Origin: a virus
Lineage: Duplodnaviria > Caudoviricetes
IMG/VR virus record: IMGVR_UViG_3300036944_001066
Location: 391-64,390 of that record
Reading direction: 5' to 3' (one strand)
Length of the DNA: 64,000 bases
Within the stretch, counting starts at the first letter, position 1, and each line of letters opens with the position of its first letter. A program made the translations under genes and the position numbers. Positions 734 to 57,992 of the stretch are shown here, piece after piece. The notes beneath the pieces were generated by a model, which was given only the letters and a program-made list of their open reading frames with translations, ran no database searches and was not told where the DNA came from.

Positions 734-746
734 GCACATCCAGCGC
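734..746 (-). promoter_or_regulatory. Late-leader GGA hairpin, variant GCGC-TGGAT-GTGC
   Basis: 26 nt before ATG 707; -10-like TAGAGT at 760-765. Confidence 0.65.
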
Positions 747-896
747 CTGAGATGGCTGCACTCTAACCGATGCGGCGGCCAATCTCAACGCCTTTGACCG
801 GCATGTTTCTGCTCGCAAAACCGCGTTCGCCGCTCCATTCTCACCCTCCACATCAACCACCCACCACAACCACCTGAAATCGCACCATAAACGCAA

Positions 897-922
897 CGTG
901 GGCGGCATCGCTGCCGCCCACG
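897..922 (-). terminator. Hairpin terminator after csrA
   Basis: Perfect 11-bp stem CGTGGGCGGCA/TGCCGCCCACG, followed by T-rich sequence on the minus strand. Confidence 0.6.
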
Positions 923-955
923 CTTCCCCGCCGCTCCCCTTTTGGACTGCCAGAA

Positions 956-1159
956 CTACCAATCCTCGACCGGATGGGCCGGCGTGCTCGCAACCGGCTC
1001 CGCAGGCACAACTGCGCCCGGTTTCTGAATGCGCACAACCTGCGTTTTTGGCACGTCAATTGCCAGCCGAACACGCCGGCCTGACTTCTCATGCATCGTA
1101 ATTTCCCCGATGCCTTCGAGAACCAAAATTTGTCCCATTTTCATTTCGAGGATCAGCAT
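956..1159 (-). CDS. csrA: CsrA/RsmA-like RNA-binding protein (divergent)
   Basis: MLILEMKMGQILVL...GRRVRLAIDVPK aligns with CsrA MLILTRRVGETLMI...GNQVRIGVNAPK; Bcep22-like phages also carry a head-region CsrA. Confidence 0.8.
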   Translation of the reverse strand: MLILEMKMGQILVLEGIGEITMHEKSGRRVRLAIDVPKTQVVRIQKPGAVVPAEPVASTPAHPVEDW

Positions 1160-1165
1160 CGTGCG

Positions 1166-2092
1166 TCAGCCCTGTTGCAGGTAGCGCTCGTGCGCTGCCG
1201 GGTTGGATTTTTCCAGCTTGGCAAGCTCGCGCTCGAATCCCACGCTGTCTTTCTCGGCCAGGCGATCGAGATAGGCGAATTCGCCGCCATCATCCGCCTC
1301 GCTGATATCGGACGCCGGCACGGATGCCAGTGTCGGCGGTGGCGCCGGCCGCTTCTTGAGAGCCGTTGCTGCCGCCTTCTTGTCGGTCGGCTTGGCTGCG
1401 GGTTCTGCCGGCTTAACGCCATAGGCTGCAGCGACCGTCTTCTGGATGGCCTTGTGGGCACGCTCAAGCAGCGCCGGATTGGTCGGGTTGTTGACGCTCG
1501 CCTGCAGTTTGCGCACCTCAACGTCAAGCAAACCGCGCAGCGGAGAATCCGGGCCGTATTCCGGATGAGCGGTCGTGAAAGCCTTGACCGCGCCGCCCCA
1601 GCTCTTGAGCGCATGCTTCTTCTCGATGTCGGCCGAGATCTGCTGCGTGTCGATTGCGCGCTGCTCGTCGGCAAGGGCTTCCATTTTCTGCAAAAACTCA
1701 TTGCCCAACAGTTCGCCGTCATCGAACTGCTTTGCAATCTCGGCCCGCTGGGCTTTCAGCGCCGCCGCTTTTTCCGCGATGTTTTGATGCAGGATCCAGC
1801 CCGGCACCTCGTCGTCTTCAAGGGGCTCGTCTTCTTCCTCTGCCGCATCGGGTTCGAGATCGGGCACAACTGCGGCATCGGCGACCGCCGCAGCGGCATC
1901 ACCTTCGGCCGCCTGATTGCCTTCGCCGTCATCGTCGCCGTCTTCATCGTCTGCGGCGGCGGCTGTGCCGTCATCCTCGGCGGCGCCTTCACCGCCGTCA
2001 TCGTCGCCGCCTTCGTCGTCTTCGAGCATGCCCTCGCGCTCATCGTCGGTGAGTAGCGCCAGCTCCTCTTCGGTCCACTTCTTGGCCGCCAT
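1166..2092 (-). CDS. Putative capsid scaffolding protein
   Basis: Very acidic N-terminus, coiled coil, directly downstream of the portal. Confidence 0.7.
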   Translation of the reverse strand: MAAKKWTEEELALLTDDEREGMLEDDEGGDDDGGEGAAEDDGTAAAADDEDGDDDGEGNQAAEGDAAAAVADAAVVPDLEPDAAEEEDEPLEDDEVPGWILHQNIAEKAAALKAQRAEIAKQFDDGELLGNEFLQKMEALADEQRAIDTQQISADIEKKHALKSWGGAVKAFTTAHPEYGPDSPLRGLLDVEVRKLQASVNNPTNPALLERAHKAIQKTVAAAYGVKPAEPAAKPTDKKAAATALKKRPAPPPTLASVPASDISEADDGGEFAYLDRLAEKDSVGFERELAKLEKSNPAAHERYLQQG

Positions 2093-2102
2093 GATCAATC
2101 CC

Positions 2103-4346: not shown

Positions 4347-4370
4347 CAGGCGGTCGCCCCGCAGATATGG

Positions 4371-4802: not shown

Positions 4803-4823
4803 GATCGCATCCTTTTTCTGTGT

Positions 4824-8672: not shown

Positions 8673-9175
8673 AATGTGGATGCCTTCCTGATCGTTCTGT
8701 CCACACGCGGGCTGTAGGCAAGCCGCGCATGGTACTTGCAGTAGACGTCAACAGGAGCGGTGGAGCCGGCGCAGAACAGCATGTGCTCTTTCTCCCCGCT
8801 CACGGGCCACCTGCACTGATTGTCCTTCAGCTGGTACAGCTTCAAACGCTCGACATCGGGAGCGCCTGCATGCGGCACAGCATGAACAACGGGCGCAGGA
8901 AGAGGGGCAGCTGCAGGCTTGGGCAGGAGGCGCGGCAGGCTGTTGAACTTGTTGACCTGCCGGACGGGCGCCGGGCGCTCTACGCGCGGCACCGACGGCT
9001 TCTCGGCAGCGGGGCCACGTTCTGTGATGCCCATGCGGTGCATCTTGCCAATGATGGCATTGCGCGAGATCCCGCCCATTTCGCGGGCGATATCGCTGGC
9101 GCTCTTCCCGTCCGTCCAAAGCTTCATCGCTTTGGCGGTATTTTCTTCGTTCCAGTATCCGGTATCCATGGTCAT
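8669..9175 (-). CDS. gcrA: GcrA-family transcriptional regulator
   Basis: W....LW.DG.SAS.IA..MGGISRNAIIGKMHRMG and CRWP...FC...YC..HARLAY. Confidence 0.9.
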   Translation of the reverse strand: MTMDTGYWNEENTAKAMKLWTDGKSASDIAREMGGISRNAIIGKMHRMGITERGPAAEKPSVPRVERPAPVRQVNKFNSLPRLLPKPAAAPLPAPVVHAVPHAGAPDVERLKLYQLKDNQCRWPVSGEKEHMLFCAGSTAPVDVYCKYHARLAYSPRVDRTIRKASTL

Positions 9176-11288: not shown

Positions 11289-11294
11289 TGCGCA

Positions 11295-13130: not shown

Positions 13131-13140
13131 GACGCGGAAT

Positions 13141-13233: not shown

Positions 13234-13248
13234 GGCACATTTACCCCA

Positions 13249-31847: not shown

Positions 31848-32188
31848 GGTGCCGGCTCCGGTTCGAGATCAGGAATTTCGACAGTCTGCCCGGCGAGCGC
31901 ATGCGTGGTGTCGCCGAGGAACTGGATGCGCCCGTCGGTGACATAGGAATGGCACCGGTGGTGAATGTCTTTTGCTGGGTCGTCGAACTCTTCGGCTTTG
32001 TCGCTCGGTTCGTTCCATGTCACCAGAATGGAGGGCGTGAAGGTCGGCGCTTCCGGATTGCCGTTGTATTCCCAACGGGGGCCGAGCCCGACACCGGTTC
32101 GCACCTGGTGGCGCTCGTTGCAGCCGGGACACCGGAAGAACAGCCGGCCGTCTTCGCCTTGTCGAAGTATGCGGCTTAACGCGCTCAC
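31844..32188 (-). CDS. DUF6527-like metal-binding protein
   Basis: FRCPGC..H, WEYNGN..PTFTPSI, RCHSYVTDGRIQFLGD. Confidence 0.75.
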   Translation of the reverse strand: MSALSRILRQGEDGRLFFRCPGCNERHQVRTGVGLGPRWEYNGNPEAPTFTPSILVTWNEPSDKAEEFDDPAKDIHHRCHSYVTDGRIQFLGDTTHALAGQTVEIPDLEPEPAP

Positions 32189-32991
32189 TCCTCCGCCCCT
32201 TTTTGGACGACAAGCTGAGGGCCGCTGCTGGCAAGCGCGTCATATGCCAAGGCGCGCTCGGCGGCTGCGCGTTTGCGCACGTTGATGACGATCAGCACCA
32301 GGACGAGGATTGCCGCAACACCGCCCATCACCGCGATGGCCGTGTAATAGTCAAAGTCGCTCACAGTCGTCGGCGACGAGGCGGCGACCGCAGAACCGGA
32401 GCCGCTACCAGCAGCGCCGGCGGCAGTAATCTTTTCGGTTCCTGCGGCATTGTTCTTCGCATGGGTCGCGTCAACGGCATGCGCCGCGGCTTCCGTGCGG
32501 ATCACGGTCGGCGTGGCGCCCATGGCGGCCATAGCCATTGCCACGCCGCGCACCTCGATGTCAGCAACGCGACGGCCCCAGCCTTTACCGAACGTTTTCC
32601 AGATCTTCAGGGATTGCATGAAGGACAGGCGGGCGCGGCAGATCTTGCGCACCGTCTCGGAATGATCGTTGGAGCCCATAGCGGCCCAAAGCCATTTCTT
32701 GCCGCGGGAAACGCCCGAATTGACCGACGCATCATAAACGGCAAGATCGACGCCCGGGAACAGGTTCGGCGCACCGCATGCTTCCCAAAATTCGCTGCGA
32801 TAAAAGGTGAGCGCTTGCGCTTTGGTAACATTGCGCACCGGGGAAAGCTTCATCCCCATTTTGCGCTGATACTCGTGCCAGCGCACTTCGGTAATGCCGT
32901 ACATCGTCTTGCCACCGGGGTCGGCGGGATGGTCGCTCCATCCGCCCTCCCATTTGGAGGTGATCGGGTGGCACACTGGAAAACGGTCCAT
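32185..32991 (-). CDS. GH108 endolysin with C-terminal TM segment
   Basis: WEGGWSDHPADPGGKTMYGIT, DASVNSG, FGKGWGRR; RBS AAGGAG. Confidence 0.92.
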   Translation of the reverse strand: MDRFPVCHPITSKWEGGWSDHPADPGGKTMYGITEVRWHEYQRKMGMKLSPVRNVTKAQALTFYRSEFWEACGAPNLFPGVDLAVYDASVNSGVSRGKKWLWAAMGSNDHSETVRKICRARLSFMQSLKIWKTFGKGWGRRVADIEVRGVAMAMAAMGATPTVIRTEAAAHAVDATHAKNNAAGTEKITAAGAAGSGSGSAVAASSPTTVSDFDYYTAIAVMGGVAAILVLVLIVINVRKRAAAERALAYDALASSGPQLVVQKGAEE

Positions 32992-33016
32992 GACGGCGGG
33001 GCTCCTTGGTGAACCC

Positions 33017-33113
33017 GCACGTCCTGCGCAGCAATGTTTTTCATTACCACGCACCGTGTATTGCAACAATCCCGCAAGAAAGGTAATAAGGAAAGAGTAG
33101 GCGCAGGACGTGC
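33017..33113. promoter_or_regulatory. Divergent late promoters, each followed by the GCGCAGGACGTGC hairpin
   Basis: Plus strand: TTGCAA-17-TAATAA then motif 33101-33113. Minus strand: TTGTTG-17-TAATGA then motif 33029-33017. Confidence 0.75.
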
Positions 33114-33138
33114 TAATTTTCCATCAGGAGTTAGCACC

Positions 33139-34236
33139 ATGCCCACAATTGTACCTTTCGGCGATCCGAAGGCACAGAAGAAGTGGTCCGGCCAGTTGAT
33201 GGTCGCCACCATCCAGCAGTCCTACTGGGATCGCCGCTTCATCGGCGAATCCGATGAGAACTGCATCCAGAAGCTCACCGACCTCGAAAGCGCCGCCGGC
33301 GACAAGATCACTTACGATCTGTCCGTCCAGTTGCGCAACAAGCCGACCTACGGCGACAACCGCATGGACGGTTCGGAAGAGGCGCTGAAGTTTTTCACCG
33401 ACGAAGTGAACATCGACCAGATGCGTAAGCCGGTTTCGGCTGGCGGCAAGATGTCGCAGAAGCGCACCGCGCACAATCTGCGCATGATCGGCAAGAAGCG
33501 CCTCGCCGATTACTGGTCTGCCTTCATGGACCAGATGCTGTTCATCTACCTGTCGGGTGCGCGCGGCATCAACCAGAACTTCATCGAAGACACGGCATGG
33601 ACCGGCCACGCGGCCAACCCCATCCAGGCGCCGTCGAGCGACCACATCCTTTACGGTGGCGATGCCACCAGCAAGGCGACGATCGACAGCTCGGACAAGA
33701 TGTCCCGCAACCTGGTTGAACGTGCCGCCGTCGCCGCGACCATGATGGCCGCCACCGACCCCCGCAACGCTCGCCTCCTGCCGCTGAACATCAACGGCGA
33801 GAAGCATTACGTCTGCATTATGTCGACCTTCCAGGAACATGACCTGCGCACGTCCGATACCGCCGGCTGGCTGGAAATCCAGAAAGCGGCGGCGGCGGCC
33901 GAAGGCAAGTCCAATCCGATCTTCAAGGGCGGGCTGGGCATGATCAACAACGTAGTGCTCCACAGCCATGAAGACGCGATCCGCTTCAGCGACTACGGCG
34001 CAAGCTCCAACGCTCCGGCGGCCCGCGCGCTGTTCCTCGGCCGTCAGGCTGGCGTCATCGCATTCGGCGCCGTTGGCGGTTTCCGCTTCCAGTGGACCGA
34101 AGAAACCAAGGACCATGGCAACGAGCACGTCATTGCCGGCGGTCTGATGGTCGGCGCCAAGAAGGCCCGGTTCAACAACCGTGACTTCGGCGTCATGGCC
34201 CTCGACACCTACGCCAAGGATCCGAACGCGGCTTAA
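33139..34236 (+). CDS. Major capsid protein (N4-gp56/DUF4043 family)
   Basis: GDPKAQKKWS, IQKLTDLES.AGD.I.YDL, NPIFKGGLG, RALFLGRQAG. Confidence 0.92.
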   Translation: MPTIVPFGDPKAQKKWSGQLMVATIQQSYWDRRFIGESDENCIQKLTDLESAAGDKITYDLSVQLRNKPTYGDNRMDGSEEALKFFTDEVNIDQMRKPVSAGGKMSQKRTAHNLRMIGKKRLADYWSAFMDQMLFIYLSGARGINQNFIEDTAWTGHAANPIQAPSSDHILYGGDATSKATIDSSDKMSRNLVERAAVAATMMAATDPRNARLLPLNINGEKHYVCIMSTFQEHDLRTSDTAGWLEIQKAAAAAEGKSNPIFKGGLGMINNVVLHSHEDAIRFSDYGASSNAPAARALFLGRQAGVIAFGAVGGFRFQWTEETKDHGNEHVIAGGLMVGAKKARFNNRDFGVMALDTYAKDPNAA

Positions 34237-39974: not shown

Positions 39975-39987
39975 GCGCAGGACGTGC
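39975..39987 (+). promoter_or_regulatory. Late-leader GGA hairpin GCGC-AGGAC-GTGC
   Basis: TATAGT at 39960-39965; 27 nt before ATG 40015. Confidence 0.75.
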
Positions 39988-40014
39988 GGCCTCTCCTTTT
40001 CATGAGGCCACACA

Positions 40015-41271
40015 ATGGGCAAATTCAGTTCCTCTGCACCCGCAGCAGATCCCGCGATCGGCGAAGCCGCTCTTAAAGAGGCGCAGACTGGCGAGGCGTG
40101 GCTTGCCTTTGCGAAAGATTCCTTTGCTGTTTCGCAGGAGCGTCAGAAAGAACTAGACGCCCTCACGACAAAAGTGACGGAGCAACAGCTTGGCCTCGCG
40201 ACCGATCAGGCAACATGGTCAAAAGAGGATCGCGCGCGCTACAACAGCGTCTATAAGCCGATTGAGGATCAATACATCGCCGAGGCAACCAATTATGCTT
40301 CGGACGAAAAGCAGGCAGAGGCGGCGGCTGGCGCCCGCGCAGACGTGCAAACTGCCGCGGCCAATGCACGATCAGCCACCGAACGCCAGGCGGCATCGAT
40401 GGGCATTGATCCCACGTCCGGCCGGTTTGCCGGCGTGCAGGCCACCACCGACATGAACGCCACACTGGCCGAGGCTGGCGCGGCGAATGGCGCGCGTGAG
40501 GCAGTGCGTGACAAAGGGTTGGCGCTGAAGGCCGACGTGGCGAACATGGGCCGTGGTTATGCGTCCAGCGCGGGCACAGCTGCCGGAGGCAGCGTCGGCG
40601 CCAGCGCAACAGCACTTTCTGGCGCCCAGTCCACCAATAGTCAGTCGATGGCGGCAAACAACATCATGGGTGCCGGCTTCCAAGGGGCAATGCAAGGCTA
40701 TTCCGGGCAGGCGGCGACCTTGAACCAGCAGTTCGGCATCCAGTCCAACAACTGGCAGGCACAGCAGAGCGCGAACGCCCAGGGCGCCGCCGGCATCGGA
40801 ACTTTTTTGGGTGGCCTGTTTGCCAGCCCGATCTTCAAGTCCGACGAAAACCTGAAAGAGGACATTCAGGATATCCCCGAAGGCGAGGGCATCAACGCCA
40901 TGCGCAAGATGCCCGTGAGCGAGTGGAGCTACAAAGAGGGCGTCGAGGATGGCGGCCGGCATGTCGGCACAATGGCGCAGGATTTCCAGCGCGCCACCGG
41001 CAAGGGCGATGGCCAGTCGATCCCTGTCGTCGATGCCATCGGCATCACCATGAAGGCGGTGCAGGATCTCGACCAGAAGGTGGAAAAGCTGGCCGGCATG
41101 ATCGGCCTTGGTGACCACGAGAAGGCGGAAACCGCCGAGGAAGAGGCGGTTGAGGACGATGAAATGTCCGAAGAGGAGGATGCCGCCGCACCGCCGCCCA
41201 TGCCAGCCAAGCGCCGCGCCAAGCGCAACACGCCGATGATCGGCATCAACTTCGAAAAGGAAGCCGCGTAA
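40015..41271 (+). CDS. Putative ejection protein with C-terminal peptidase S74 (ICA) domain
   Basis: A/G/Q-rich body; SDENLKEDI...WSYK...HVGTMAQDF. Confidence 0.75.
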   Translation: MGKFSSSAPAADPAIGEAALKEAQTGEAWLAFAKDSFAVSQERQKELDALTTKVTEQQLGLATDQATWSKEDRARYNSVYKPIEDQYIAEATNYASDEKQAEAAAGARADVQTAAANARSATERQAASMGIDPTSGRFAGVQATTDMNATLAEAGAANGAREAVRDKGLALKADVANMGRGYASSAGTAAGGSVGASATALSGAQSTNSQSMAANNIMGAGFQGAMQGYSGQAATLNQQFGIQSNNWQAQQSANAQGAAGIGTFLGGLFASPIFKSDENLKEDIQDIPEGEGINAMRKMPVSEWSYKEGVEDGGRHVGTMAQDFQRATGKGDGQSIPVVDAIGITMKAVQDLDQKVEKLAGMIGLGDHEKAETAEEEAVEDDEMSEEEDAAAPPPMPAKRRAKRNTPMIGINFEKEAA

Positions 41272-48800: not shown

Positions 48801-51800
48801 TCGGTCTCAGGCGTGACGCCAATCAGGCCGAATTGCGAGTGAGCGACGATCACAACATCCCAGTCACCGGTCGCCACGCGGGCGAACAGGCGCTTGCGGT
48901 TCTGCTTCTCGAAGTCGCGTTTGGTCGGGGCCAGAACCTTTGCGCCCGGGTAGAGCTTCTGGAAGTCGGCGGCCCACTGTCCGACAAGATGGTTCGGCAC
49001 AGTGAGGACAGGCTTCTTTGCCTGCCCGGTACGGCGCTTCTCCATGATGGACGCGATCAGGGCGAATGTCTTGCCTGCACCGACGGTATGGTCCGCCAGC
49101 GCGACAGATGACTGAAGCGTGCGCCAGACAAACGATTTCTGGTGCGGGCGCAGCGTTACGATGTCGTCGCCGACCTTGCCCGGCAACGACAGGTGCGCGC
49201 CGTCATAGACGCGGATGACGTCGGTGTTGAAAGTATCGTTATAGAGCCGAGCCAGTTCGACGCGGCGTGCATCGTCCTGCCAAAGCCAGCGGTTCCACTC
49301 TTCCTTGACGCGCGAGACCTTCTCGTTGGCGGCCTCCGTTGCCGCCTGGTCGATCACGTCTTTGCCTTCGGCATCCTTCGTGTAGACCTGCGCCGACTTG
49401 CCGTTGATCGCAGCGTTGACGATCTGGCTCACCGATGCCCGTCCGGTAGCCCACATGGCATCAGATGCCGGCGTCGAGCGGGGCACGTCCAGCACCCAGA
49501 TGCCGTTGCCCCTGGAGTAAACCGCGCGTGCGCCTTTGCTCCCGGTGATGTGCTCGATGAAGTCGCCGACGTGCTTCGGCGGCACCCAGGGCGAACCCGC
49601 CTTCACATCGATGTCGATTGCCTCGATATCTTCCGGCTGCACATCCCGCAGGGCAGCAACGTTGCGACGGAATGTCGGGTCAGAGACGGCGGCACGCTCG
49701 GCCTCGGCCAGCTTTTGCTTAACGTTTCCGGACAGGTAGGCGTCGGCCGTTTCATAAGTGCCGGCCGGCGTCTGATAGAGAAGCGAACCCAGCTCATCGA
49801 CGATGGCGTCGGCAGGCTTGCCGTACAGCCGCGACATTTCATCAAGGTCAACACGGCCACGGTCATTTAGCACCTGCGCCAGCGCATCTTTCGCCGATGC
49901 GGCCGAGGTCGGGCGCTGATACGGTTGCTGGGTGCGCTTGGTGAAGATTGGAGCCTTGTCGGCCTTCGGCGGGCGGGCCTTCTCGCCCGTCTTCTTGGCG
50001 ACTTCGGCGGAAATGCCCTTGTCGTAATTGTTTTCCAGCGCCGAAATCTGCGGCCACGTCGGATCGTCGCGGAACAGGCGCTTGTTGGCGTCGTGGTTGA
50101 TCGGCCCGTTCTTGCCAACGAAGGCGTCATATGCCTTGTTCAGCCGCTCGCGCAGGTTCTCGATCTGCTTATCGGTCGCTGTGTCGCTGATCTGCGCACG
50201 ACGGAGGCGCGCGAACCCATCACGGACGCGCACCATTCCCTCGACACGTTCTTTGGCCTTGTCGCTGGCGAACGCCACCGGCTTTGACTGGGGCGTGCCC
50301 AGGCTATCGGCGATGCGCTCATGGACCGTGCCATCCGACGACAGGAACATCGAGCCAACGGATGCAGCCTCGACGCCATCGACGACGGTTTCGGTCGGGC
50401 GCATTTCCACGCCCGGCTCCGGCATCAAATCCTTGGGCAACGTCGCGATTGCAGCGCGCAGTTCCGCTGGCAGATCCTGCCCCTCGCGCGCGACAAGCGC
50501 GGGCTCATCCGGGCCGTACATCGTGCCATAGGCGCCGAAATCGCCCAGCATCATGCCGGGGTTGGCAATGAAGTAGCGGTTGAGCGGAACCGTCTTGCCG
50601 TCTTTGCCGCGGTAGTCGGCCACATCCACCCACGCGCGATCGCCCGGGCCGTCTTCTGCCGTGCGCTTGCGCAGGATGACGATATCCGTGGTCACTTCGG
50701 TGCCGGCGTTCTTCAGAAACGCATTGTTAGGCAACCGGATTGCGCCGACGAGGTCCGCCTGATTGGCAATCATCGTGCGCGCAGCGGCATTGTTGCCGTC
50801 GAGGAAGCGGTTTGTCACCACCATTGCCAGCACGCCGCCGGGGCGCAGCGCCTCAACAGCCTTGGCAAAGAAGAAATTGTGGATCGAAAGCTTGTTGAGG
50901 TGGCGACGGTTCTTGTCGTACAGCCGCTCGGAGCCGAAAGGCGGGTTGCCAATGACCAGGTCGAAATAGTCGTTCGGCACCACAAGCGTCTCGAATCCCA
51001 TCGGCGCCTGAATATTGGTCGCGGGGTAAAGGTTCTTGGCGATGCCGCCCGTGATGTGGTCAAGCTCGACGCCGGTCACATGCGATCCGGATTTCGCGCC
51101 AGCCGGCATCATGCCGATGAAGTTGCCGGCGCCGACCGACGGTTCAAGCACCTGCCCGCCCTTGAAACCAAGCTGCTGCGCGACGTTCCAGACGGCATCG
51201 ACGATTTCGGGCGAGGTGTAATGCGCGTTGCGTGTCGAGGATTCGGCCGCACGGTATTCTTCCGGCGTCAGCAATGCCTTCAACTCGGCGGCCTGCTTCT
51301 CCCAGCCCTTGTTCGCTGATCCGTCATCACGGAAGAACGCGGCACGGAGGCCGCCCCAGCCTACCCACTTCGCAAGCACCGCCTGCTCTTCGCGGGTGGC
51401 CGGCCGGTTCTCATCGGCAAGCGTGCGCAAAACCTTGATGGCCGCGACGTTGCCAGCGAACTTGGCCTTCGATCCGCCTTGGCCGATCTGGTCGCCATCC
51501 GTGATGGCATAGTCGGCCGGCAGGTTCTGCGCCGGCGTGGCTGCGCTCTCGACGCCCTTGAGGGCATCAAGCGACGACTGAGGGGCTACTCGGCGTCCAT
51601 CGACCGTTGGCCGGCCCGCATTGCGTCCATCATCGCCGCGCTGATCGACGTCGGGCTCTGCGGCTGCGTTCCTTCCGGTGGCGGGAACAGATACTCCTCC
51701 CGCGTCATCTGCCACGCCTCGTCCGGACTGAACCCGCTCTGCTCCAGCGCGTCCGTCTCCCGAAACGTCATCTCGGCCGCCTGCTGCAGGGCGCTCTCCA

Positions 51801-54800
51801 ACTGCCCGGCGTCCTTCAGCGCCTGGTACCGCGTCGGCTGGAATTCCTTCCAGTGCTGGCGCGCCTGGCTGATCCAGTTCTGCAGGTTCATCTGCGGTCT
51901 CCTTACCAATCGCGTTGACATCGGCGCTATCCACCTCGGCCGCGCTCGACATGCCGTCAAAGCCAGTAGCGCGAGGATCATATTTCACACCCATATACCA
52001 TGATTTCAGGTATGGGCGCGCTACCTCGCCGAGGTCACCGATCATCGCGGAGGCGTAGGCGGCAAACGTGCGTGCGCCCTTCTCGATGTGGTAGCCGGCA
52101 AGCGTGATACCAGCCTGCATGATCTCTGGATCGATACCGCTATTAAGCTGATTGAGTTTGGAGCGCAGCAACGCACGGGCCTTATCGGCCGCGCTTTCCG
52201 TAAAGATCTTGTTCTCGCTGACGGCCGGCGCGGCCTTCACCGCCGCCTGCTTCTCCGGGACCAGGTTTGTCTTTTCCCATGCGGACAGTTCGCGGTCCGT
52301 GGGGATGGACGAATGGGTGCGCTCGCGATCAAGCGAACCGTCCTTCTTGACCTCGGCAACTGTCACGGTCCATTCGGTCCCGTTGCGGTTGAAGCTGATC
52401 ACGCGATCTTTGCCGCCGCCATAAGCATCGACGTCTCGGCCCGGCTGAAAATAATTCTCGTAGCGGTCCACGCGCTGCGCTTGCGTCAACGGTTTGGGAC
52501 GTGGTGCGGCTGACGGCTTCGCAACAGATGCCGGTGCCGGGGCAGTTTTCTCCACCGACGGCTTCGCTGCGGCAACCGGCCGAGCCGTCTCCGCCTCGTA
52601 GATCTGCATCGCCGATTGATAAACATCATCCGCCTGCGAAGCACGGACCTTGAGACCGGCGCCATCGCGCGCACCGATGTAACCCATCAGGTACGGCTCG
52701 ATCGGGTCCGTCGTGCCACCGTGCGGTGCGGGCTTCGTTGGCGGCTTGCCTTCCTTCTGATCGAGCCAGCCGGCAATCATCTGGTATGCGACCGAGCTTT
52801 CGCGGTGCGGATCCATCGGCTTGATTTCGGCGCGGAACTTGCGGAATGCCGGCGTGGCCCAAACGGCTTTCACCTCATCGTCCGTCACCTGACGCATGCG
52901 CGCCTTGTCCTGATCCGGCACGCCGGCGCTGCGCTCGCTGAATCGCTTTGCCGTGTTGCCGGTCTCAAGCCACTGCTTGAATTCGCCCAGCGTCGTTTCC
53001 GTCACCGGACCCAGCTTCCAGCCGTCGCTGTAGTTGTCGAGATAGCCCTGTTCTGCCTCGGCCTGTGCGTTGAAGCCGAGCATCACCTTGTGCTCATCCC
53101 ACTTGCCATCGGGGCCGACTTGGTCGACCACGAAAACCGGCGCGGCATCAGTCAGCGTCTCTGTGCCTGGCTTCACGAACACGTCGATGTGGTCTTTGTC
53201 GCGGCCCACGGTGCCCTTGATGTAGCCATAATGGCTTTGCATCCGCACCGACCACTGCTTGCCGCCCTTGTCCACGCCCTTGCGATCGGAGCCGGCCGGG
53301 TTCTCGATCGAGATGTCGAGCCCGCCAATGCGCGCATGGCCGAGCTTGTAGTTGCCGGCTTCCTTCTGCGCCTGCGTCGGCTCCGGCCGCTCGTTCTCCG
53401 GCGACGTTGCGGCTTCTTTGGCTGCTTGGTCGACGGTAAGTGCAACGTCGCCAGCCTCGCGCAGGTAGTTGATCCCTTCCCGAACCGCAGCATTGCGGAC
53501 AGCCTGCAAGGTTGCTTGCGCAGCGGGTGAAATTGGCCCGCCAGCGTCTGCGCCAATCTGGTCCCCGTAGCTGGAAAGCTTGACGTAACCGTGATTTTCA
53601 ACTGGAATAAGGTCCGCCTCAAATAGGCGGCCAAGGAATTCAGCGTGATCACCGGACGGATTGCTGGTGGGCTTCAAGACGTAAAGCTTTCCATCTGGCT
53701 CGATGATTGCGGCTTCTTCGCGCCGAGGGTGCTCAACAATCCTGCGAACATATTCGATAGGCGACATGCGTTCGCCCATTTCTTTGTAGATGGCCGTCAA
53801 TTTTTGTTTGGTATTCTGCGCCGGCTTTGCAGCTTCCGCTGTCTGAATGTCCGTGATGGAGTTGCCGGCATGCATCCGCGCAAACGCGGTATAGCCGGGG
53901 ATGTCGTTGACCTCATTCCAAAGTTCAAGCGGATAGCTGCCGATCTTGGCAACATCGGTAAACGGGATATCCCGCGAGCCGGGAGCGATGCCCCAGCGGT
54001 TTTCCTTTGCGTTCCATGTGACCAACGATGCGGTGTTGCCGCGAATGACGACGCGCGAGCCCTTCTCGCCAACGCCGCTCAGACCGGCAGAACTCAGAAC
54101 GCTGGCGTTTGTGTCGAGGAAGATTGTGCGCGCGCTGCGAGGCTTTAGCCCCTTGTCGCCTTCATGGCCCGGATCGGCACGTTCGGCCTTTACGCGCGTC
54201 GTGGTGCCGTCCGCATGCAAGGTGTAGCGGCTACCTTTCGCAGTCGTGAAAGTCTGCTCGCCGCCGCTCGCCGAATCCTCCTGCACCGCGCCGCCATTAC
54301 GTACCGCGTCGATCTTGGCGCGGATAGCGGGCGTGAACGTGCCCCACATCGCGTTTTCGCTGCGCTTGACGCCTGCCTCGTCGAGGATGCGCTTGCGCTC
54401 CGGTGCCGTCAGTTCGGCATCCCACCACATTTCGTTGCCGACCGTGTTCGTCGTATCTGCGTCGGCCTTGGACCGCTCAAGCTGCCACTGCTTCAGCCGG
54501 CGCTCGTTGACCGGTGCAATGCGCTGCGGCAGATCAGATCCAGCCGTCTTTGCCGCACGCTGCGCGCGGTACCGATAATCATCGGCCATGCTGCCGAGCG
54601 CCTGCGGCGTCACCTTGAAGGCATCGGCCAGCGCTTTGTGTTCCGGCACGTCAACCGAGCCAAGATCCAACTGCGACGAACCGCTTGCCTTGGAGATCGC
54701 CCGATTAAGGCCGAGATCGAAAAGCCTTGCGTGGTTTTCGTCCGGCATGACAAGCGTCTTGCCCATGACTTTGCGCATGGTCGGCCCGGCAACAGCGGCC

Positions 54801-57514
54801 TTCTCTTCGGTGCGGTCCACCGGCGGCACGCGCCGCGCATCTTCTGCCGCCACCTGCTTTGGCGTCTGCTTGTTGACCTTCAGGCTTTCGAGCGGAACCT
54901 GGTACGACTTGCCGTCATCGGCGCGCACGACGGCGTCCGTGCCGTCCCACGTTTCAACGGTACCGGCAAACCGGCCGGCCTTCTCGTCGTTGACGATGAT
55001 GCGCTGGCCCGGCGGTGGTGCGCTGGGGAAGCGCATGTTGGCTTCCATGTCCTGCGATGCGGGCGCCAGTCCCTCATTGGTCACCGTTGCAGAAACCGGT
55101 GCTGCCGGCTCCAACGCCGGATCGGTCGAAAACTCGGGCAGGCTATCGCCAATCGGGATTGGCCCGGTTTCGGGCGGGTTATCGGCCGCGATCTTCTCCG
55201 GCGAATCCGCAATCTTCGACAGGTTGGCGAGCGGGATCTGGTAGACCTCGCCAGTGCCGCTATCGACGATGACAGCTTCATCGCCTTCGTAACTGTCCAC
55301 GCGACCCATGAAAGGCTCAATGCCATCCGCATCGACGCGCACCGTGGCGCCGACTTCCGGTGCGCCATCTGGCATCGCTGCGGCGGCCGGCATTGCCACC
55401 GGCACCGCTGCTGCGGCGCGTGCCGCCTGCTGCTCTGCCGCATGCTGGGTGGCTCTGCCAATCGGCCCGCTTGCCGTTGTCTGCACCGTGGGTGCGGCTG
55501 GTGCGCCTGCATCTGCCGGCATCGCCTCGCCTTCGGCTCTCGGCCTGGCTGCACCACCGACGCCGCCGAGCGTGCCGCCCATGGCTCCACCACCGGCAAG
55601 GCCAGACGCAACCGCCTCGCCGACGCCTTCCGTAATCTGCTGATCCGGGTTCACCCGCTGCACGCCGGCATTCTCGGCCATCGTCTGCAGCGCGCTCTGC
55701 GGCGCCTCTTCAAGCACGCCCTCGCCGATCATGCCGCGCACCGTACCTGCCAGCACACGCTTTGCCACGTTGCCGCCGACACCCTCGGCGAGGATCTTTG
55801 CCAGCGCACGATCGCCCATGCCGCCGAACATGCCGGTGGCAACGCCTGCCATGAGGAACGACTGCGTTGCTGCGTCCTCGGTCACTGCCTTGATTGCCTC
55901 TTCCTGGCTCATGCCGCCATCGACGAGTGCCTTGACGGCATCGCTTTCGGCCAGTTGGTCCGGCGCAATCTGCCCGATCCGGTCGCGCACGTTCTTCGCA
56001 GCGTCCGCACCGCCCAGGATGCCTTCCGAGATCGCGCCGGCAACCGTGGCCGTGCGTGCGGCGACTGCTGCGGCCTGCACCTGCGATCCGGTTGCCGCCA
56101 TGGTGCGCAGATACGCGCCACGCGCCAGAATGCCGCCGGGGAGCATCGTCACCAGTGTGCTTGGCGCACTTTCGCCCACCACGCGCAGATAGCTGCGAGG
56201 ATCGCGCCACGCCGGGCCAAACCGCTTGTTGTCGGCGTCCCACCAGTTTTTGGCGTCCGCATCCTGCTGTGCCTGCGTCACCGACGCATTGGCCTGCGTC
56301 TGGCTCTGCGACAGGCGCTGATCCAGCGTCTTGCCCATCGCCCAACGGTCAATATCGTCGGATGCCTGCAGGAACGCCTCCCCGCCTGGCAGTTTGCGGA
56401 ACACGGTGTCAGCGAGCGAAGACAGGGACTGCCCAAGGCCGATGGTGCCGGACTTGAGGATGCGTCCGGTATCGCCGAACACGCCACCGGAACGGTTCTC
56501 CTCTTCCCACTTCTGCTGCCAGTCGCCCAACTGCGATTCCGCGATGGTCTCGTAACGGCCCGGATCTTTCGCCTCGAGCGCTTCGACGCGCTGCGCGGCC
56601 TCCGCATTGTGCTGCTCATTGAGCGCGTTGATGCGATTGGTTTCCGACTGCGTTGCCGCTGCCTCTGCGGCGGCCTCGATCTGCGCGCGCCGCTGCTTGG
56701 CCATGTCGTCGAACGGATTTCCGCCGGCCATCAGCCCCATGGGGTCCGAAGCCTTGAAATTCTCGTCGACCACGATCGAGTTACCAGACGCGCTGGCCGA
56801 GACCGGGCCAAGTGGCGCACGTTCAACGCGGCCCAAGGCGCGATTGAACTTTTCGCCATAGGCGCCAATGCTGGTTCCCAAAGAATCCTTGCGCTCTGTC
56901 TTGCCAACGCCCCCAGCTCCGCCAAACCATGCCTGCGCAGCGCCCTCCGGTCCAAAGCGTGCCACGTATTTTCCGAACTGATGGTCGAAAACGGCATCTT
57001 GAATATCGGGATTTGCAAGAAACTCTTCTGCGGTTACCTCTCGCCCAATTGCCGCCTTGGACCACGGGCCAACATTGGCTTCCATGACCTGGTACCGGCC
57101 GAGAGCATACCCCATAGAACGATGTTTCGGCCCGATTGCAGAGTAGTCTCCGCTCCCTTTGCTTTCGATCGATGCGATAGCCTCACGATAGGCTGGCATT
57201 TCAGGGAACTGCGGCGTGAACACCTCTTTGCGCGCTGGCTTGGGCGCATATGTGCCATCGCGCAGCACGGCTGCGAACGGATCAGCGCCCTCATCGCCGA
57301 GACCGGGCATTTCTGCAATCCGGCTGGTTTTTTCCGCGCGCGGTGCCTTGGTCACATACGGGTCGCGATAGCTGCTTTCGGACTTGGCTGCAGGTGCATC
57401 CGCCTTCTCCGCCGGCGTTGCCTCAACCGGCTTCTCGGCCGCTGCGCTCGGCTTCCCGCCATAGATGTTGAGCGGGTCATTCCAGTCGCCGTCGAGGCCG
57501 AGGATAACAGGCAT
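42857..57514 (-). CDS. Giant DarB-like polyvalent virion protein (~4885 aa)
   Basis: Lysozyme-like (IASIES, GRYQVM), InPase-like (HYGYIKGT..RDKDHIDVFV), N6-MTase (LEPSVGAG, NPPF), SNF2 (VGAGKT, DEFH, PWRPSDLEQRDGR), HNHP domain, YFPLGRFG; RBS GGAG. Confidence 0.93.
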   Translation of the reverse strand: MPVILGLDGDWNDPLNIYGGKPSAAAEKPVEATPAEKADAPAAKSESSYRDPYVTKAPRAEKTSRIAEMPGLGDEGADPFAAVLRDGTYAPKPARKEVFTPQFPEMPAYREAIASIESKGSGDYSAIGPKHRSMGYALGRYQVMEANVGPWSKAAIGREVTAEEFLANPDIQDAVFDHQFGKYVARFGPEGAAQAWFGGAGGVGKTERKDSLGTSIGAYGEKFNRALGRVERAPLGPVSASASGNSIVVDENFKASDPMGLMAGGNPFDDMAKQRRAQIEAAAEAAATQSETNRINALNEQHNAEAAQRVEALEAKDPGRYETIAESQLGDWQQKWEEENRSGGVFGDTGRILKSGTIGLGQSLSSLADTVFRKLPGGEAFLQASDDIDRWAMGKTLDQRLSQSQTQANASVTQAQQDADAKNWWDADNKRFGPAWRDPRSYLRVVGESAPSTLVTMLPGGILARGAYLRTMAATGSQVQAAAVAARTATVAGAISEGILGGADAAKNVRDRIGQIAPDQLAESDAVKALVDGGMSQEEAIKAVTEDAATQSFLMAGVATGMFGGMGDRALAKILAEGVGGNVAKRVLAGTVRGMIGEGVLEEAPQSALQTMAENAGVQRVNPDQQITEGVGEAVASGLAGGGAMGGTLGGVGGAARPRAEGEAMPADAGAPAAPTVQTTASGPIGRATQHAAEQQAARAAAAVPVAMPAAAAMPDGAPEVGATVRVDADGIEPFMGRVDSYEGDEAVIVDSGTGEVYQIPLANLSKIADSPEKIAADNPPETGPIPIGDSLPEFSTDPALEPAAPVSATVTNEGLAPASQDMEANMRFPSAPPPGQRIIVNDEKAGRFAGTVETWDGTDAVVRADDGKSYQVPLESLKVNKQTPKQVAAEDARRVPPVDRTEEKAAVAGPTMRKVMGKTLVMPDENHARLFDLGLNRAISKASGSSQLDLGSVDVPEHKALADAFKVTPQALGSMADDYRYRAQRAAKTAGSDLPQRIAPVNERRLKQWQLERSKADADTTNTVGNEMWWDAELTAPERKRILDEAGVKRSENAMWGTFTPAIRAKIDAVRNGGAVQEDSASGGEQTFTTAKGSRYTLHADGTTTRVKAERADPGHEGDKGLKPRSARTIFLDTNASVLSSAGLSGVGEKGSRVVIRGNTASLVTWNAKENRWGIAPGSRDIPFTDVAKIGSYPLELWNEVNDIPGYTAFARMHAGNSITDIQTAEAAKPAQNTKQKLTAIYKEMGERMSPIEYVRRIVEHPRREEAAIIEPDGKLYVLKPTSNPSGDHAEFLGRLFEADLIPVENHGYVKLSSYGDQIGADAGGPISPAAQATLQAVRNAAVREGINYLREAGDVALTVDQAAKEAATSPENERPEPTQAQKEAGNYKLGHARIGGLDISIENPAGSDRKGVDKGGKQWSVRMQSHYGYIKGTVGRDKDHIDVFVKPGTETLTDAAPVFVVDQVGPDGKWDEHKVMLGFNAQAEAEQGYLDNYSDGWKLGPVTETTLGEFKQWLETGNTAKRFSERSAGVPDQDKARMRQVTDDEVKAVWATPAFRKFRAEIKPMDPHRESSVAYQMIAGWLDQKEGKPPTKPAPHGGTTDPIEPYLMGYIGARDGAGLKVRASQADDVYQSAMQIYEAETARPVAAAKPSVEKTAPAPASVAKPSAAPRPKPLTQAQRVDRYENYFQPGRDVDAYGGGKDRVISFNRNGTEWTVTVAEVKKDGSLDRERTHSSIPTDRELSAWEKTNLVPEKQAAVKAAPAVSENKIFTESAADKARALLRSKLNQLNSGIDPEIMQAGITLAGYHIEKGARTFAAYASAMIGDLGEVARPYLKSWYMGVKYDPRATGFDGMSSAAEVDSADVNAIGKETADEPAELDQPGAPALEGIPADAVPGAEGRRAVGERPAAGGRDDVSGDGRAGAERVQSGRGVADDAGGVSVPATGRNAAAEPDVDQRGDDGRNAGRPTVDGRRVAPQSSLDALKGVESAATPAQNLPADYAITDGDQIGQGGSKAKFAGNVAAIKVLRTLADENRPATREEQAVLAKWVGWGGLRAAFFRDDGSANKGWEKQAAELKALLTPEEYRAAESSTRNAHYTSPEIVDAVWNVAQQLGFKGGQVLEPSVGAGNFIGMMPAGAKSGSHVTGVELDHITGGIAKNLYPATNIQAPMGFETLVVPNDYFDLVIGNPPFGSERLYDKNRRHLNKLSIHNFFFAKAVEALRPGGVLAMVVTNRFLDGNNAAARTMIANQADLVGAIRLPNNAFLKNAGTEVTTDIVILRKRTAEDGPGDRAWVDVADYRGKDGKTVPLNRYFIANPGMMLGDFGAYGTMYGPDEPALVAREGQDLPAELRAAIATLPKDLMPEPGVEMRPTETVVDGVEAASVGSMFLSSDGTVHERIADSLGTPQSKPVAFASDKAKERVEGMVRVRDGFARLRRAQISDTATDKQIENLRERLNKAYDAFVGKNGPINHDANKRLFRDDPTWPQISALENNYDKGISAEVAKKTGEKARPPKADKAPIFTKRTQQPYQRPTSAASAKDALAQVLNDRGRVDLDEMSRLYGKPADAIVDELGSLLYQTPAGTYETADAYLSGNVKQKLAEAERAAVSDPTFRRNVAALRDVQPEDIEAIDIDVKAGSPWVPPKHVGDFIEHITGSKGARAVYSRGNGIWVLDVPRSTPASDAMWATGRASVSQIVNAAINGKSAQVYTKDAEGKDVIDQAATEAANEKVSRVKEEWNRWLWQDDARRVELARLYNDTFNTDVIRVYDGAHLSLPGKVGDDIVTLRPHQKSFVWRTLQSSVALADHTVGAGKTFALIASIMEKRRTGQAKKPVLTVPNHLVGQWAADFQKLYPGAKVLAPTKRDFEKQNRKRLFARVATGDWDVVIVAHSQFGLIGVTPETEAAFIQQQIGDLEQSITDMRRETGEKSRNVAQLAKQRQNLESKIKGLLDAGRKDDGLYFDDLGVDALYVDEFHEFKNLPFVTGMQRVAGLGNPTGSKKATDMFIKIQNVLDRTGGNIVVATGTPLSNTMAEMYTVQRYLDKKRLGNLGLSHFDAWARVFGEAVTDWELSPSGQYKLNTRFAKFVNIPELMKMYLGFADVISNDDIKAQLAAQGKTLPLPKVMGGKPNNITVERSQDQAAFIGEGRMDANGEMQFPEGSLVYRAEHLPKKAEKGADNMLKVMSDARKAALDMRLIDPAYADNPDSKVSRAADEMKRIYDKWSDKRGAQLVFIDLSTPKKAKAKQESELRDLMRKAEEGDEAAQEKLDAMSPDEFLALTSKFSVYDDLRQKLIDRGVPADEIAFIHDANTEIQKEELFGKVRSGRTRFLFGSTAKMGAGTNVQNRLVALHHLDAPWRPSDLEQRDGRIIRQGNELYDEDPNGFEVEILRYATKNTLDARQWQGIEAKARFIGQVRKGDVKTRQIEDIAGEAANAAEMKAAASGNPLILEEMETRRKLRTLEGQASEHNRNQHRIRDKIRQAREEIEAINARLPGERTDAANAEKLADQPFKAIVDGETFEKPKEFGAALLARMRKGIVDGMGGAETVGKYGDFTIRMDHMYEAKFDVEIKGARSYHLTIEDVGQQDPTGLAMSITNQVRRLTKLPASDEARAADVQEQIPLIAKQIGPWPNAAELEETATKHRALLDALKPKKPGTAPVAAPADADVLPAKADKRPDPVVKSTQDLRSLPVPPRNAEESLMQWAFRVVSEPGLKSGNEHLVAIDDDGAVVEYGTAGRPSMTGMSNKLASAMSNPDRQIVIFHNHPRNSPLSGADIAFSVMPGLHATWAIGAGGRNTRYEPTDRMKAWRAKFSDDTGTQIYRLADMTSALAKISQFMTEFLQRQVNNGNTVASVADEAHGYAIQEVAQRAGIIAYFTNQSYDFASVPGMDAKINEAAKRLEGAVFNDTTAKTADAGIYRSAKPVRHIAEMEGMAVAGRGDVGANPKSGGLAEAGARDYSPEKRRTVNRERITRELSGRLTDLTPAVLKTIPLNYFTELARPNMVAVGEYLRVKRLMDAFRGQKHADADEIAGQWLKFTRLGFASRDKAKAQALSDLMHDSTIFGVDPSSTEDEEKAKGHYAALRQRYLALPPAGRELYNKVRNAYSAQAAELDEILLDNVRKAQEIAREQAERRYKKSLEQIRDAGLAMDLRRKAEEDAKSAYQAETTKSSWAAKARMTKLRIAFESSRVPAPYFPLGRFGRYFVTVRDVDGSVLTFSKFEKAADRDRFASEVGREYPGGTVEKGVMEEGADLRNSMDPRMVAEIETILGGAGVDSEVMDMIWQRYLETMPDLSTRKRFIHRKGTAGFNRDALRVFSSHMFHAAHQMAKVKYGLELQELVQQARDQAREADDPTRGMTLSNELAKRHDWVMNPTGGKAAQVLTSAAFVWFLAASPASAALNMTQTVMMGMPILAGRFGGMKMAGQALMKASMDSVKGRGSITNANLSREEKDAIQAFYDSGLIDRTQSHELAGVGDTGVNYSPLRARVMGVISWAFHRAEVWNREVTALAAYRMARGSGQDHLAAIDTAHDLTWKTHFDYSNSSRPAIMQNDIAKVALVFRNYNVNMLYRMFRDIHQSLKGETPAARKEARYQLAGVVGMQALFAGVSGVAGFNLAMMVAGLIFGDEDDDPLGFEQAFRTDMVNILGPELGGVVLNGVPGHYLGIDLTTRIGMPDLWFRSPNRELQGKDEYQYWLSQSLGATVGLGENLYNGFNLVMDGEVARGIETAAPKVVRDLMKSYRYASEGLTSFDGTTVMTADQIGVHGIVAQALGFTPASVAETWDRNTALKNAETRIMRERQRLVTKWAMSVIEGEDAEIDKATKAIDKWNDVPLHQAVPIKPDTLKRSVKTRMKNSANRDEQGTLIRNELLGERLRGALSERIYD
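45586..45795 (-). CDS. Nested 69-aa gene in the +1 frame of the giant gene
   Basis: RBS AAGGGG; PPSPFDTLQKWKEWLSQVEAM amphipathic helix. Confidence 0.55.
   Translation of the reverse strand: MTQQQKLLMPGFIDPPSPFDTLQKWKEWLSQVEAMSARIPNRADLLKQARETIRLKSAERSIGNGLPVN
51586..51891 (-). CDS. Nested 101-aa gene (TnpV-like) in the +1 frame of the giant gene
   Basis: RBS AAGGAG 7 nt upstream; ARQHWKEFQPTRYQALKDAGQLESAL...EAWQMTREEYL. Confidence 0.65.
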   Translation of the reverse strand: MNLQNWISQARQHWKEFQPTRYQALKDAGQLESALQQAAEMTFRETDALEQSGFSPDEAWQMTREEYLFPPPEGTQPQSPTSISAAMMDAMRAGQRSMDAE

Positions 57515-57541
57515 GGGTGTGGCTCCGGTTGAATTGGAGCC

Positions 57542-57554
57542 GCACGTCCTGCGC
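57542..57554 (-). promoter_or_regulatory. Late-leader GGA hairpin GCGC-AGGAC-GTGC
   Basis: TATAAA at 57573-57568; 27 nt before ATG 57514. Confidence 0.75.
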
Positions 57555-57588
57555 GACAAGTGCATGATTTATAGATGGCGGCGGGGCA

Positions 57589-57624
57589 TAAGAAAAGCCC
57601 GCCGGGGCTATCCGACGGGCTTCT
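57589..57624 (-). terminator. Rho-independent terminator
   Basis: AGCCCGTCGG...CCGGCGGGCT followed by TTTCTT on the minus strand. Confidence 0.75.
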
Positions 57625-57641
57625 GCGCGATCTTATCTCGA

Positions 57642-57956
57642 TTAAGCCGCGGCGCGAACGCGGGCTTTGTCCCCGGGCTTGACGTAGACGTCGTGGCTGT
57701 GGCTGTCATTGACCATCAGCAGCAGAGACGGAGCCGCATCCAAGTCGCCGCTGCCAACGTCGAGGTACGCATCTGCCTGGATGGTAACGCGGAAAACGGG
57801 CCGCAATCCATCCTTGTCGGTTGCAGCCTTTGTGGTGCTGGTCCCAAGCGCCGGGGTCTCGGACCACTGCACCAGGCCGAACAACGGCTGCTTGGCGCCG
57901 AACGGTGCATCTGCCGGCGCGAAGCCGCATGCGATATGAACATCAGGTAGAGCCAT
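57642..57956 (-). CDS. Small beta-rich putative virion protein
   Basis: FRVT...DAY..VG...VYVKPGDK; own promoter, motif and terminator. Confidence 0.7.
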   Translation of the reverse strand: MALPDVHIACGFAPADAPFGAKQPLFGLVQWSETPALGTSTTKAATDKDGLRPVFRVTIQADAYLDVGSGDLDAAPSLLLMVNDSHSHDVYVKPGDKARVRAAA

Positions 57957-57979
57957 GGGCGTGCCTTTCGGTTGATTGA

Positions 57980-57992
57980 GCACGTCCTGTGC
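57980..57992 (-). promoter_or_regulatory. Late-leader GGA hairpin GCAC-AGGAC-GTGC (perfect stem)
   Basis: TGATAATAT upstream; 23 nt before ATG 57956. Confidence 0.75.

Follow-up and report, generated by a model that had tools for sequence, protein, structure and literature searches.

The 64,000-nt window analyzed here, nearly all of the 64,390-bp IMG/VR virus record IMGVR_UViG_3300036944_001066, contains six copies of a 13-nt sequence, each located shortly before the start codon of a gene. We propose that this 13-mer represents, in the window, a conserved RNA box in the 5′ leaders of a clade of temperate podophages (PBC5, Atu_ph08, POI1126, PEp14, the Bcep22-like phages, and Ralstonia phages), and that a CsrA-like protein encoded by the phage binds the box hairpin (P1) and controls the translation of late genes, a proposal to which we give an even chance. 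The box, its position, its conservation, a partner sequence that tracks its variants, the homology of the protein to CsrA, and the linkage between the gene and the box were all established directly.

Six copies of the box in the window

The pattern GCRCWGGAYGTGC matched the window exactly six times, against an expectation of 0.05 (100 shuffles, none of which gave six or more matches). All six copies were present at the coordinates and on the strands reported in an earlier reading made from the letters of the window (the sequence-only reading). On a rough gene map of the window, the six copies were wholly outside genes; non-coding sequence accounts for 11.9% of the window, and the probability of finding six of six copies there is ~3e-6. 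Each box shares its strand with the gene that follows, 23–27 nt before the start codon in all six cases, as had been described. The stem variant at 57980–57992, GCAC..GUGC, in which A-U replaces G-U, is likewise real. The family-wide consensus GCRCWNGANGTGC matched eight times, and the two extra matches (12046 and 27469) are inside coding sequence. The half-box GCGCANGA alone gave 43 matches versus 29 expected; it is common and not diagnostic.

Reading of the sequence placed a TAnnnT or TAnAAn hexamer 9–13 nt upstream of each box. The spacing of these hexamers, which had been called −10-like, was confirmed, but as promoter elements they are weak, and a scan with the E. coli consensus found no sigma-70-type promoter in 32700–33300, the divergent endolysin/capsid region. 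Rfam gave no match at the gathering score across the whole window. A simple scan flagged the capsid box hairpin (33100–33124), which is followed by AATTTTCC, together with a T-run as terminator-like.

The coordinates of the leaders and of the two regulatory genes are summarized in Table 1. The earlier gene labels were correct for the endolysin, the major capsid protein, and the CsrA-like open reading frame (ORF). The ORFs labeled "SGNH module" (90 aa) and "small virion protein" (104 aa) gave no family match in the Pfam and PHROG searches, and the "ejection proteins" match PHROG families described as "virion structural protein". Leader 1 differs from the other five in having U at box position 5, and its box is 209 nt past the stop codon of the csrA-like gene. 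The Shine-Dalgarno (SD) sequence, by reading, includes GGA in three of the six leaders (capsid, endolysin, and giant protein).

Table 1. Coordinates of the box-bearing leaders and of the regulatory genes in the window.
Feature	Position	Strand	Box	Box to start codon (nt)	Gene and family match
Leader 1	705..746	−	GCGCUGGAUGUGC, 734–746	26	ATG of 90-aa ORF (435–707)
Leader 2	32989..33029	−	GCGCAGGACGUGC, 33017–33029	25	ATG of endolysin (32185–32991); GH108 domain, PHROG 315 endolysin
Leader 3	33101..33141	+	33101–33113	25	ATG of major capsid protein (33139–34236); Phage_capsid_3
Leader 4	39975..40017	+	39975–39987	27	ATG of virion structural protein (40015–41271), then 41271–42512; PHROG 8003 and 9667
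Leader 5	57512..57554	−	57542–57554	27	ATG of giant polyvalent protein (42857–57514); 4,885 aa, 14.6 kb
Leader 6	57954..57992	−	GCACAGGACGUGC, 57980–57992	23	ATG of 104-aa ORF (57642–57956)
csrA-like gene (P0001)	956..1159	−			67 aa; last gene of the terminase-portal-316-aa-protein run
GcrA-like gene	8696..9154	−			PF07750, E=3.8e-32 (record 9086–9544); upstream of the terminase genes

The box in related phages

We scanned 35 near-complete records of related phages with the pattern GCGCANGAN{0,1}GTGY, which gave 124 hits versus 9 for the reversed pattern. At least one hit was obtained in 34 of the 35 records, and the remaining record has the variant ACGCAGGAGTGT; the box is thus family-wide. 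Its conserved form across the family is GCGCA-N-GA-(N)-GUGC, with a length of 12–13 nt. Of 99 unique leader copies in the relatives, 62 had U at loop position 6, 26 had G, 10 had A, and 1 had C, and the extra loop base was absent in 54 and could be any base where present. The loops in PBC5, Atu_ph08, POI1126, and PEp14 are AUGA or AUGAC, and those of a relative with 75% capsid identity (L008) are AAGA and AUGA. The leaders of PBC5 and Atu_ph08 that are equivalent to those of the window (endolysin, capsid, internal-virion gene, and giant gene) carry GCGCATGAGTGC or GCGCATGACGTGC. The strict pattern GCRCWGGAYGTGC gave two matches in these two phages, both inside coding sequence. Judged from these sequences, GGA is a lineage variant of the box and not a conserved feature, and the earlier description of the GGA loop as a kept feature does not hold.

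The box was found on five leaders of POI1126, on the capsid and lysis leaders of Erwinia phage PEp14, and on the capsid leader alone of BcepIL02. It is present in the giant-protein leaders of PBC5, Atu_ph08, and POI1126, which are homologous to leader 5, and in the capsid leader of nearly all among the 80 IMG/VR capsid loci listed. The box-bearing phages of the clade infect alpha-, beta-, and gamma-proteobacteria, and A5, G7, A8, and the stem are near-invariant among them. In the relatives, the distance between the box and the best-scoring −10-like hexamer is mostly 8–17 nt (range 3–30), and that between the box and the start codon is 17 to 50 nt. These spacings vary, and the box is therefore unlike a fixed promoter element. 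The two half-sites can be 12 or 13 nt apart within one genome.

Three further observations concern the surroundings of the box. The late promoters of BcepIL02 (L090) and of many beta/gamma-type loci share, by eye, an extended −10 element, TAtAAT-CGnACC. At 961–972 of the PBC5 locus (L001) and at 285–296 of another locus (L014), the start codon annotated for the integrase is the AUG of a complete box, GCGCATGAGTGC. The integrase start in the window (26974) has no box and is preceded by three GCGGGTATA repeats.

Pairing of the box with the translation start region

The loop and the 3′ arm of the box are complementary to a stretch at or just before the start codon. We call this pairing P2; P1 is the 4-bp hairpin GCGC:GUGC (one G.U pair) that the box would form by itself, with A-N-G-A displayed in the loop. 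In P2, the ribosome site would be closed, together with a hairpin containing the SD sequence. The box and its partner change alike among the relatives: the pairs CAUGAGUGC:GCACUCAUG, CAUGACGUG:CACGUCAUG, AGGAGUGC:GCACUCCU, GGAGUGU:ACACUCC, GGAGUGUG:CACACUCC, CAUGAUG:CAUCAUG, and GGAUGUGC:GCACAUCC were all found. In 87 unique leaders, the mean pairing energy of the start region was −8.6 kcal/mol with the box variant of the same leader and −6.3 kcal/mol with the other twelve variants, and the own variant was the best or tied for the best in 29 of the 87, with 13 variants in play. The observed pairing sum was reached in 0 of 5000 label shuffles, which ignore relatedness, so that this count should not be read as a probability; sounder evidence comes from the distinct states of box and partner. 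The tracking of the box variant by the P2 partner argues for an RNA switch between P1 and P2.

The P2 cells of the alignment were paired in 97% of cases, versus 31–70% for a slid partner, and the values on a model-fitted alignment were 96.8% and 20–60%, respectively. The P1 cells were paired in 120 of 120 cases in 30 capsid leaders, and none of 500 shuffles matched the score of this 4-bp stem. The outer pair of P1 was GC in 26 leaders, GU in 2, AU in 1, and CG in 1, and includes two double changes (C-G and A-U). RNAalifold returned P1 alone on 16 alpha-type capsid leaders and P2 on 10 beta-type leaders; P2 was missed in the alpha-type set because the mixture of 12- and 13-nt boxes misaligns the partner in the MAFFT alignment.

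The closed form is the minimum-energy fold of five of the six window leaders, with the SD sequence in an enclosed hairpin, and forcing P1 in these five costs 4.4–9.6 kcal/mol. Leader 1 is the only one for which the minimum-energy fold is P1. In the capsid leader (leader 3), GUGCUAA (33110–33116) pairs with UUAGCAC (33131–33137), and the energy is −18.8 kcal/mol for the closed form versus −9.2 kcal/mol with P1 forced. The claim that the variants keep the stem and the GGA loop as an RNA structure would is partly right: the pairing with the translation start is RNA-like and the partner tracks the variants, but GGA is not kept among the relatives.

The phage-encoded CsrA-like protein

Searches with the single window protein were weak. 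A search of a large protein database returned the query only, with no close relative, and tblastn against phages gave four weak rows. A family model was therefore built from syntenic ORFs, and the resulting alignment comprised 21 small ORFs. Among them are the small ORFs that, in PBC5, Atu_ph08, POI1126, and PEp14, come after the portal gene and another gene of ~320 aa; the syntenic ORF is annotated as "CsrA-like regulator" in PEp14 and BcepIL02. The window protein itself matched PHROG 8397, "CsrA-like regulator", at E=8.6e-6. The family profile (A1) reached E=1.1e-11 against RsmE (2jpp) and 3e-9 against E. coli CsrA, and 17 of the 21 members matched Pfam CsrA at E<=0.01.

The AlphaFold2 model of the window protein had a predicted local distance difference test score (pLDDT) of 79, with low confidence for residues 51–67. 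The 12 best rows listed in a Foldseek search with this model (ranks 1–13) were CsrA, RsmA, or RsmE chains, with root-mean-square deviations of 1.0–1.5 A over 37–45 columns and template modeling scores of 0.52–0.62 (query-normalized) and 0.57–0.83 (target-normalized). The E-values were just 0.03–0.2 because the protein is small. The protein is thus predicted to adopt the five-strand beta fold of a CsrA chain. The C-terminal alpha-helix is absent from the model.

L4 and R44 are the critical RNA-binding residues of CsrA, according to PMC7652899. L4 is present in the window protein, which has Ile at position 44 and Arg at the H43 position. Across the family, L2 was conserved in 16 of 21 members, R/K7 in 19, K25 in 20, and G27 in all 21, and a basic residue follows the invariant I/V42 in 18 (R or K in column 43). 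On the strength of the sequence comparisons and the model, the window ORF is a real, divergent member of the CsrA family. The sequence-only reading had recognized a phage CsrA at 956–1159, with which the family profile, PHROG 8397, and the predicted fold agree. Its two caveats, Ile in place of R44 and the missing C-terminal helix, hold as well.

Linkage between the csrA-like gene and the box

A csrA-like match was obtained in all 34 near-complete relatives searched. A box persisting in relatives without csrA, which would speak against the regulon, was accordingly not seen among them. Sufficient upstream sequence was available for 68 unique capsid leaders, and in 40 of these the distance from the end of the csrA-like ORF to the box is 21–104 nt. 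In three alpha-type genomes (L091, L092, and L093; G002, G003, and G006), a box is 11 nt past the csrA-like stop codon, within the extended hairpin GGGCGC-AAGA-GUGCCC and with no nearby start codon behind it. This box may be a 3′-end or autoregulatory site. The whole records of Stx phage SH2026Stx1, Vibrio phage D80, and Achromobacter phage CF418P1 lack both the csrA-like gene and the box; these phages are distant members of the same capsid family, and a scaffold-like gene abuts the capsid gene in them. These results support a linkage between gene and box, through synteny as well as through their shared presence or absence.

Pseudomonas phage vB_Pae_BR208a (Hollowayvirus; L138, MK511045.1 21500–30200; also L139), with a capsid protein 24.7% identical, encodes a canonical 123-aa CsrA plus a separate 68-aa phage-type CsrA-like protein. 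Three copies of GCGCAGGAGUGC (GCGCAGGAGTGC) are located beside the csrA-like gene, all on the strand of the structural genes. One copy is at the 3′ end of the csrA-like ORF, 26 nt ahead of the next start codon, and another is 26 nt before a further start codon; the remaining copy is described with the points against the proposal below.

Scans of all IMG/VR contigs for the motif plus its partner returned 14 and 33 stretches, and those with enough sequence were beside csrA-like ORFs or in records of the same clade. A 26-kb fragment (G040, behind L109/L114) contains two csrA-like matches and two box-bearing leaders, one of the boxes being 11 nt past a csrA-like ORF and ahead of a non-capsid gene that resembles that of BR208a. 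Another fragment (L055/L052; G038 and G039; 24 kb, 40% complete) has a capsid leader with box and partner, but upstream of the capsid gene it carries genes other than the portal-scaffold set usually found there.

Proposed mechanism and points against it

We propose the following mechanism. The CsrA-like protein would be made from the terminase-portal operon. The box would be transcribed at the head of the capsid, lysis, internal-virion, and giant-protein messages, and the protein would bind the P1 hairpin through the loop with its invariant A5, G7, and A8. Binding would shift the balance between P1 and P2: with P1 held by the protein, GUGC would be withdrawn from P2, much as CsrA opens the ymdA hairpin and Com the mom message of phage Mu. 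The ribosome site of the capsid message is closed in the predicted fold and would be poorly translated, and we therefore lean slightly toward activation over repression among the CsrA-like models. The persistence of an inner SD hairpin and the SD sequence inside a BR208a box leave substantial room for repression.

A more far-reaching version is that a divergent phage CsrA, its specificity relaxed to NGA, serves as a dedicated activator of translation that unlocks closed capsid, lysis, and virion ribosome sites throughout the clade and, independently, in the Hollowayviruses, with no need for a host Csr system. We advance this version tentatively and consider it rather less probable than the general proposal.

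Several results weigh against the proposal. The window protein matched Pfam CsrA (PF02599) at E=1.3e-4 with 22.3 bits (21.6 bits in a second search), below the curated cut-off of 27; it has Ile at the critical R44 position, and column 44 is R, K, or H in only 11 of the 21 family members. GGA is 100% conserved in CsrA ligands selected in vitro, and most relatives have UGA or AGA, so that the protein would need a different specificity. In regard to the RNA, the inner SD hairpin remains with P1 forced in the endolysin, ejection, and giant-protein leaders, so that P2 may be opened in part only. Because three of the four pairs in P1 are invariant, the support for P1 comes from a single pair. The covariation of P2 within the beta-type set was not above that of shuffles (150 of 500 as high), with little variation present. 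A strand-asymmetry count of G.U versus A.C pairs gave 19 versus 36, which does not favor RNA; helix ends and an A.C position that is shared confound this count. With respect to linkage, no box was found within 420 nt downstream of the csrA-like gene in PBC5, Atu_ph08, and three IMG/VR genomes, and no csrA-like ORF is visible in the 24-kb, 40% complete L055/L052 fragment or in the 10 kb upstream of its capsid gene. One BR208a copy is 5 nt before a start codon, and its AGGAG is the SD sequence itself, which suggests repression there. Finally, the co-occurrence of the gene and the box represents few independent evolutionary events.

Alternative explanations

The alternative that we take most seriously, although we consider it unlikely, is an RNA switch with no CsrA-like partner, in which the leader acts alone or another phage or host factor reads the box. 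In a leader acting by itself, transcription would yield P1 first, leaving ribosomes a brief interval before P2 closes, or the 5′ pairing would shield the message from RNase E. The P2 pairing and the variant tracking stand without any protein, the window protein has no R44, most relatives have no GGA in the box, and PBC5 and Atu_ph08 have no box near the csrA-like gene, all of which fit this explanation. It does not account for the near-invariance of A5, G7, A8, and the stem across phages of alpha-, beta-, and gamma-proteobacteria, which points to a sequence-reading factor carried by the phages, nor for the csrA-like gene in 34 of 34 relatives, adjoining the box in most, and the absence of both in the three outgroups. 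An antiterminator loaded onto RNA polymerase at the starts of the late operons, at a nut/boxB-like site, is a much slighter prospect. The box would be a small hairpin with a 4–5-nt loop just after each putative late promoter, and the downstream operons are long and include the 14.6-kb gene. The loop of boxB has an extruded base, which the optional fifth loop base of our box recalls. By reading, no boxA-like sequence was found beside the six copies, and no N-like protein was identified, a systematic search for one not having been made; the sequence selected to pair with the box is that of the translation start.

The box might instead be a DNA operator for a late transcription factor other than GcrA, at approximately +3 to +25 of the late promoters, with the RNA pairing being secondary. 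It is close to −10-like hexamers, it is a near-palindrome whose stem sequence hardly varies, and the G.U/A.C count is no argument for RNA. We nevertheless regard an operator as improbable, since the hexamer spacing is variable, the half-sites are 12 or 13 nt apart in one genome, the box is always on the sense strand, and the partner at the start codon lies at a variable distance, has a variable extent, and follows the box variants. Moreover, BR208a has copies within coding sequence or at 5 nt from a start codon, in the interior of an operon. GcrA itself, which the sequence-only reading had offered as the alternative, was rejected as the general regulator: its gene was found in one of five named box-bearing relatives (Atu_ph08) and not in PBC5, POI1126, PEp14, or BcepIL02. 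A GcrA-dependent methylated promoter was rejected as well, as the box contains no GANTC. Binding sites or decoys for a host CsrA/RsmA are the least probable explanation and, in our judgment, very improbable. All six window loops are WGGAY, and CAGGACG resembles the CsrB repeat cited in the sequence-only reading, but GGA is missing from most relatives, and phages of Burkholderia and Sinorhizobium, hosts that PMC7366521 reports to have no chromosomal csrA, retain the box.

The regulon suggested by the sequence-only reading, in which the phage CsrA coordinates the dispersed late units, appears correct in its outline but not in the detail of GGA. Nor is it specific to hosts without CsrA: the argument from such hosts is not general, as phages of Erwinia, Klebsiella, and Pseudomonas have the same module.

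Comparison with known systems

PMC7652899 describes three relevant properties of CsrA. It opens an SD-sequestering hairpin in ymdA and thereby activates translation (Renda et al. 2020), it protects the 5′ end of flhDC from RNase E, and its ligands obtained by SELEX have the consensus RUACARGGAUGU, with hairpins mostly of <=4 bp. As in ymdA, a leader hairpin here is predicted to hide the SD sequence and would be opened by a CsrA-family dimer bound to it or upstream of it. Unlike in ymdA, the regulator would be a phage-encoded protein that lacks R44 and the C-terminal helix, and the site is GCGCA-N-GA-(N)-GUGC instead of GGA and is present on up to six phage messages. As in repression by CsrA/RsmE (glgC and hcnA), a hairpin of <=4 bp displays (N)GA in a loop upstream of the SD sequence, the window loops are A/U-GGA-C/U, and one BR208a AGGAG is the SD sequence. 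The differences are that GGA is not conserved in the family, that the loop has 4–5 nt versus 6, and that the box pairs with the start codon region, a pairing that canonical targets do not need. As in flhDC, the sites would be at the extreme 5′ end of the message, whereas the selected partner here is the translation start region.

Com of phage Mu is a small zinc-finger protein that binds a hairpin beside a structure hiding the mom start region and turns translation on. Com acts on one gene, whereas the candidate here has a predicted CsrA fold and its proposed site is on several late units.

A phage csrA is not new in itself, as it is annotated in Bcep22-like phages, and csrA homologues of phages have been on record for years. 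The present gene is like their "CsrA-like regulator" (PHROG 8397) in its family and in its position between the portal-scaffold and capsid genes. That literature treats the gene as a host-acting moron, unlike here, where the proposed target box is in the leaders of the phage itself. The csrA-like gene of JC1 is called a moron of unknown role in PMC9144972, and one of its peptides was detected in virions. Sobrero and Valverde listed 30 csrA-bearing phages, including the Bcep22 type, and noted hosts that lack a chromosomal csrA (PMC7366521). The CRISPRi-ART paper describes the role of phage csrA in the life cycle as previously untested and reports small plaques upon knock-down in phage PTXU04. 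In the literature searched, no description of the target box was found, although Gill et al. 2011 (Bcep22/BcepIL02) could still note it, and neither the box string nor "phage-encoded CsrA" gave a match. The Atu_ph08 and POI1126 papers contain no mention of CsrA or the motif.

What we propose as new is CsrA-type leader control that is phage-borne, has an altered site, and has a built-in anti-start pairing. The question of what a phage CsrA does now has a concrete, testable answer, an RNA box in the late leaders of the phage itself together with an alternative pairing of the ribosome site, and box-bearing phages that can be cultivated are at hand (PBC5, Atu_ph08, POI1126, PEp14, JC1/Bcep22, and Ralstonia phages). 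If the proposal is true, temperate phages would possess a post-transcriptional switch for late genes, and a CsrA-family protein would have changed its RNA specificity.

Other features of the window

The window contains a direct repeat, exact over at least 282 bp, at 1–282 and 59341–59622 (258 25-mers in common). Two ORFs start within the repeat: one extends past the left end, and the other is the 398-aa ORF at 58385–59581(−), which has a PHROG match to "head decoration". Past 59.6 kb, the window encodes a second lysozyme with a peptidoglycan-binding domain (60759–61700) and a CBM5/12 protein (61915–63207).

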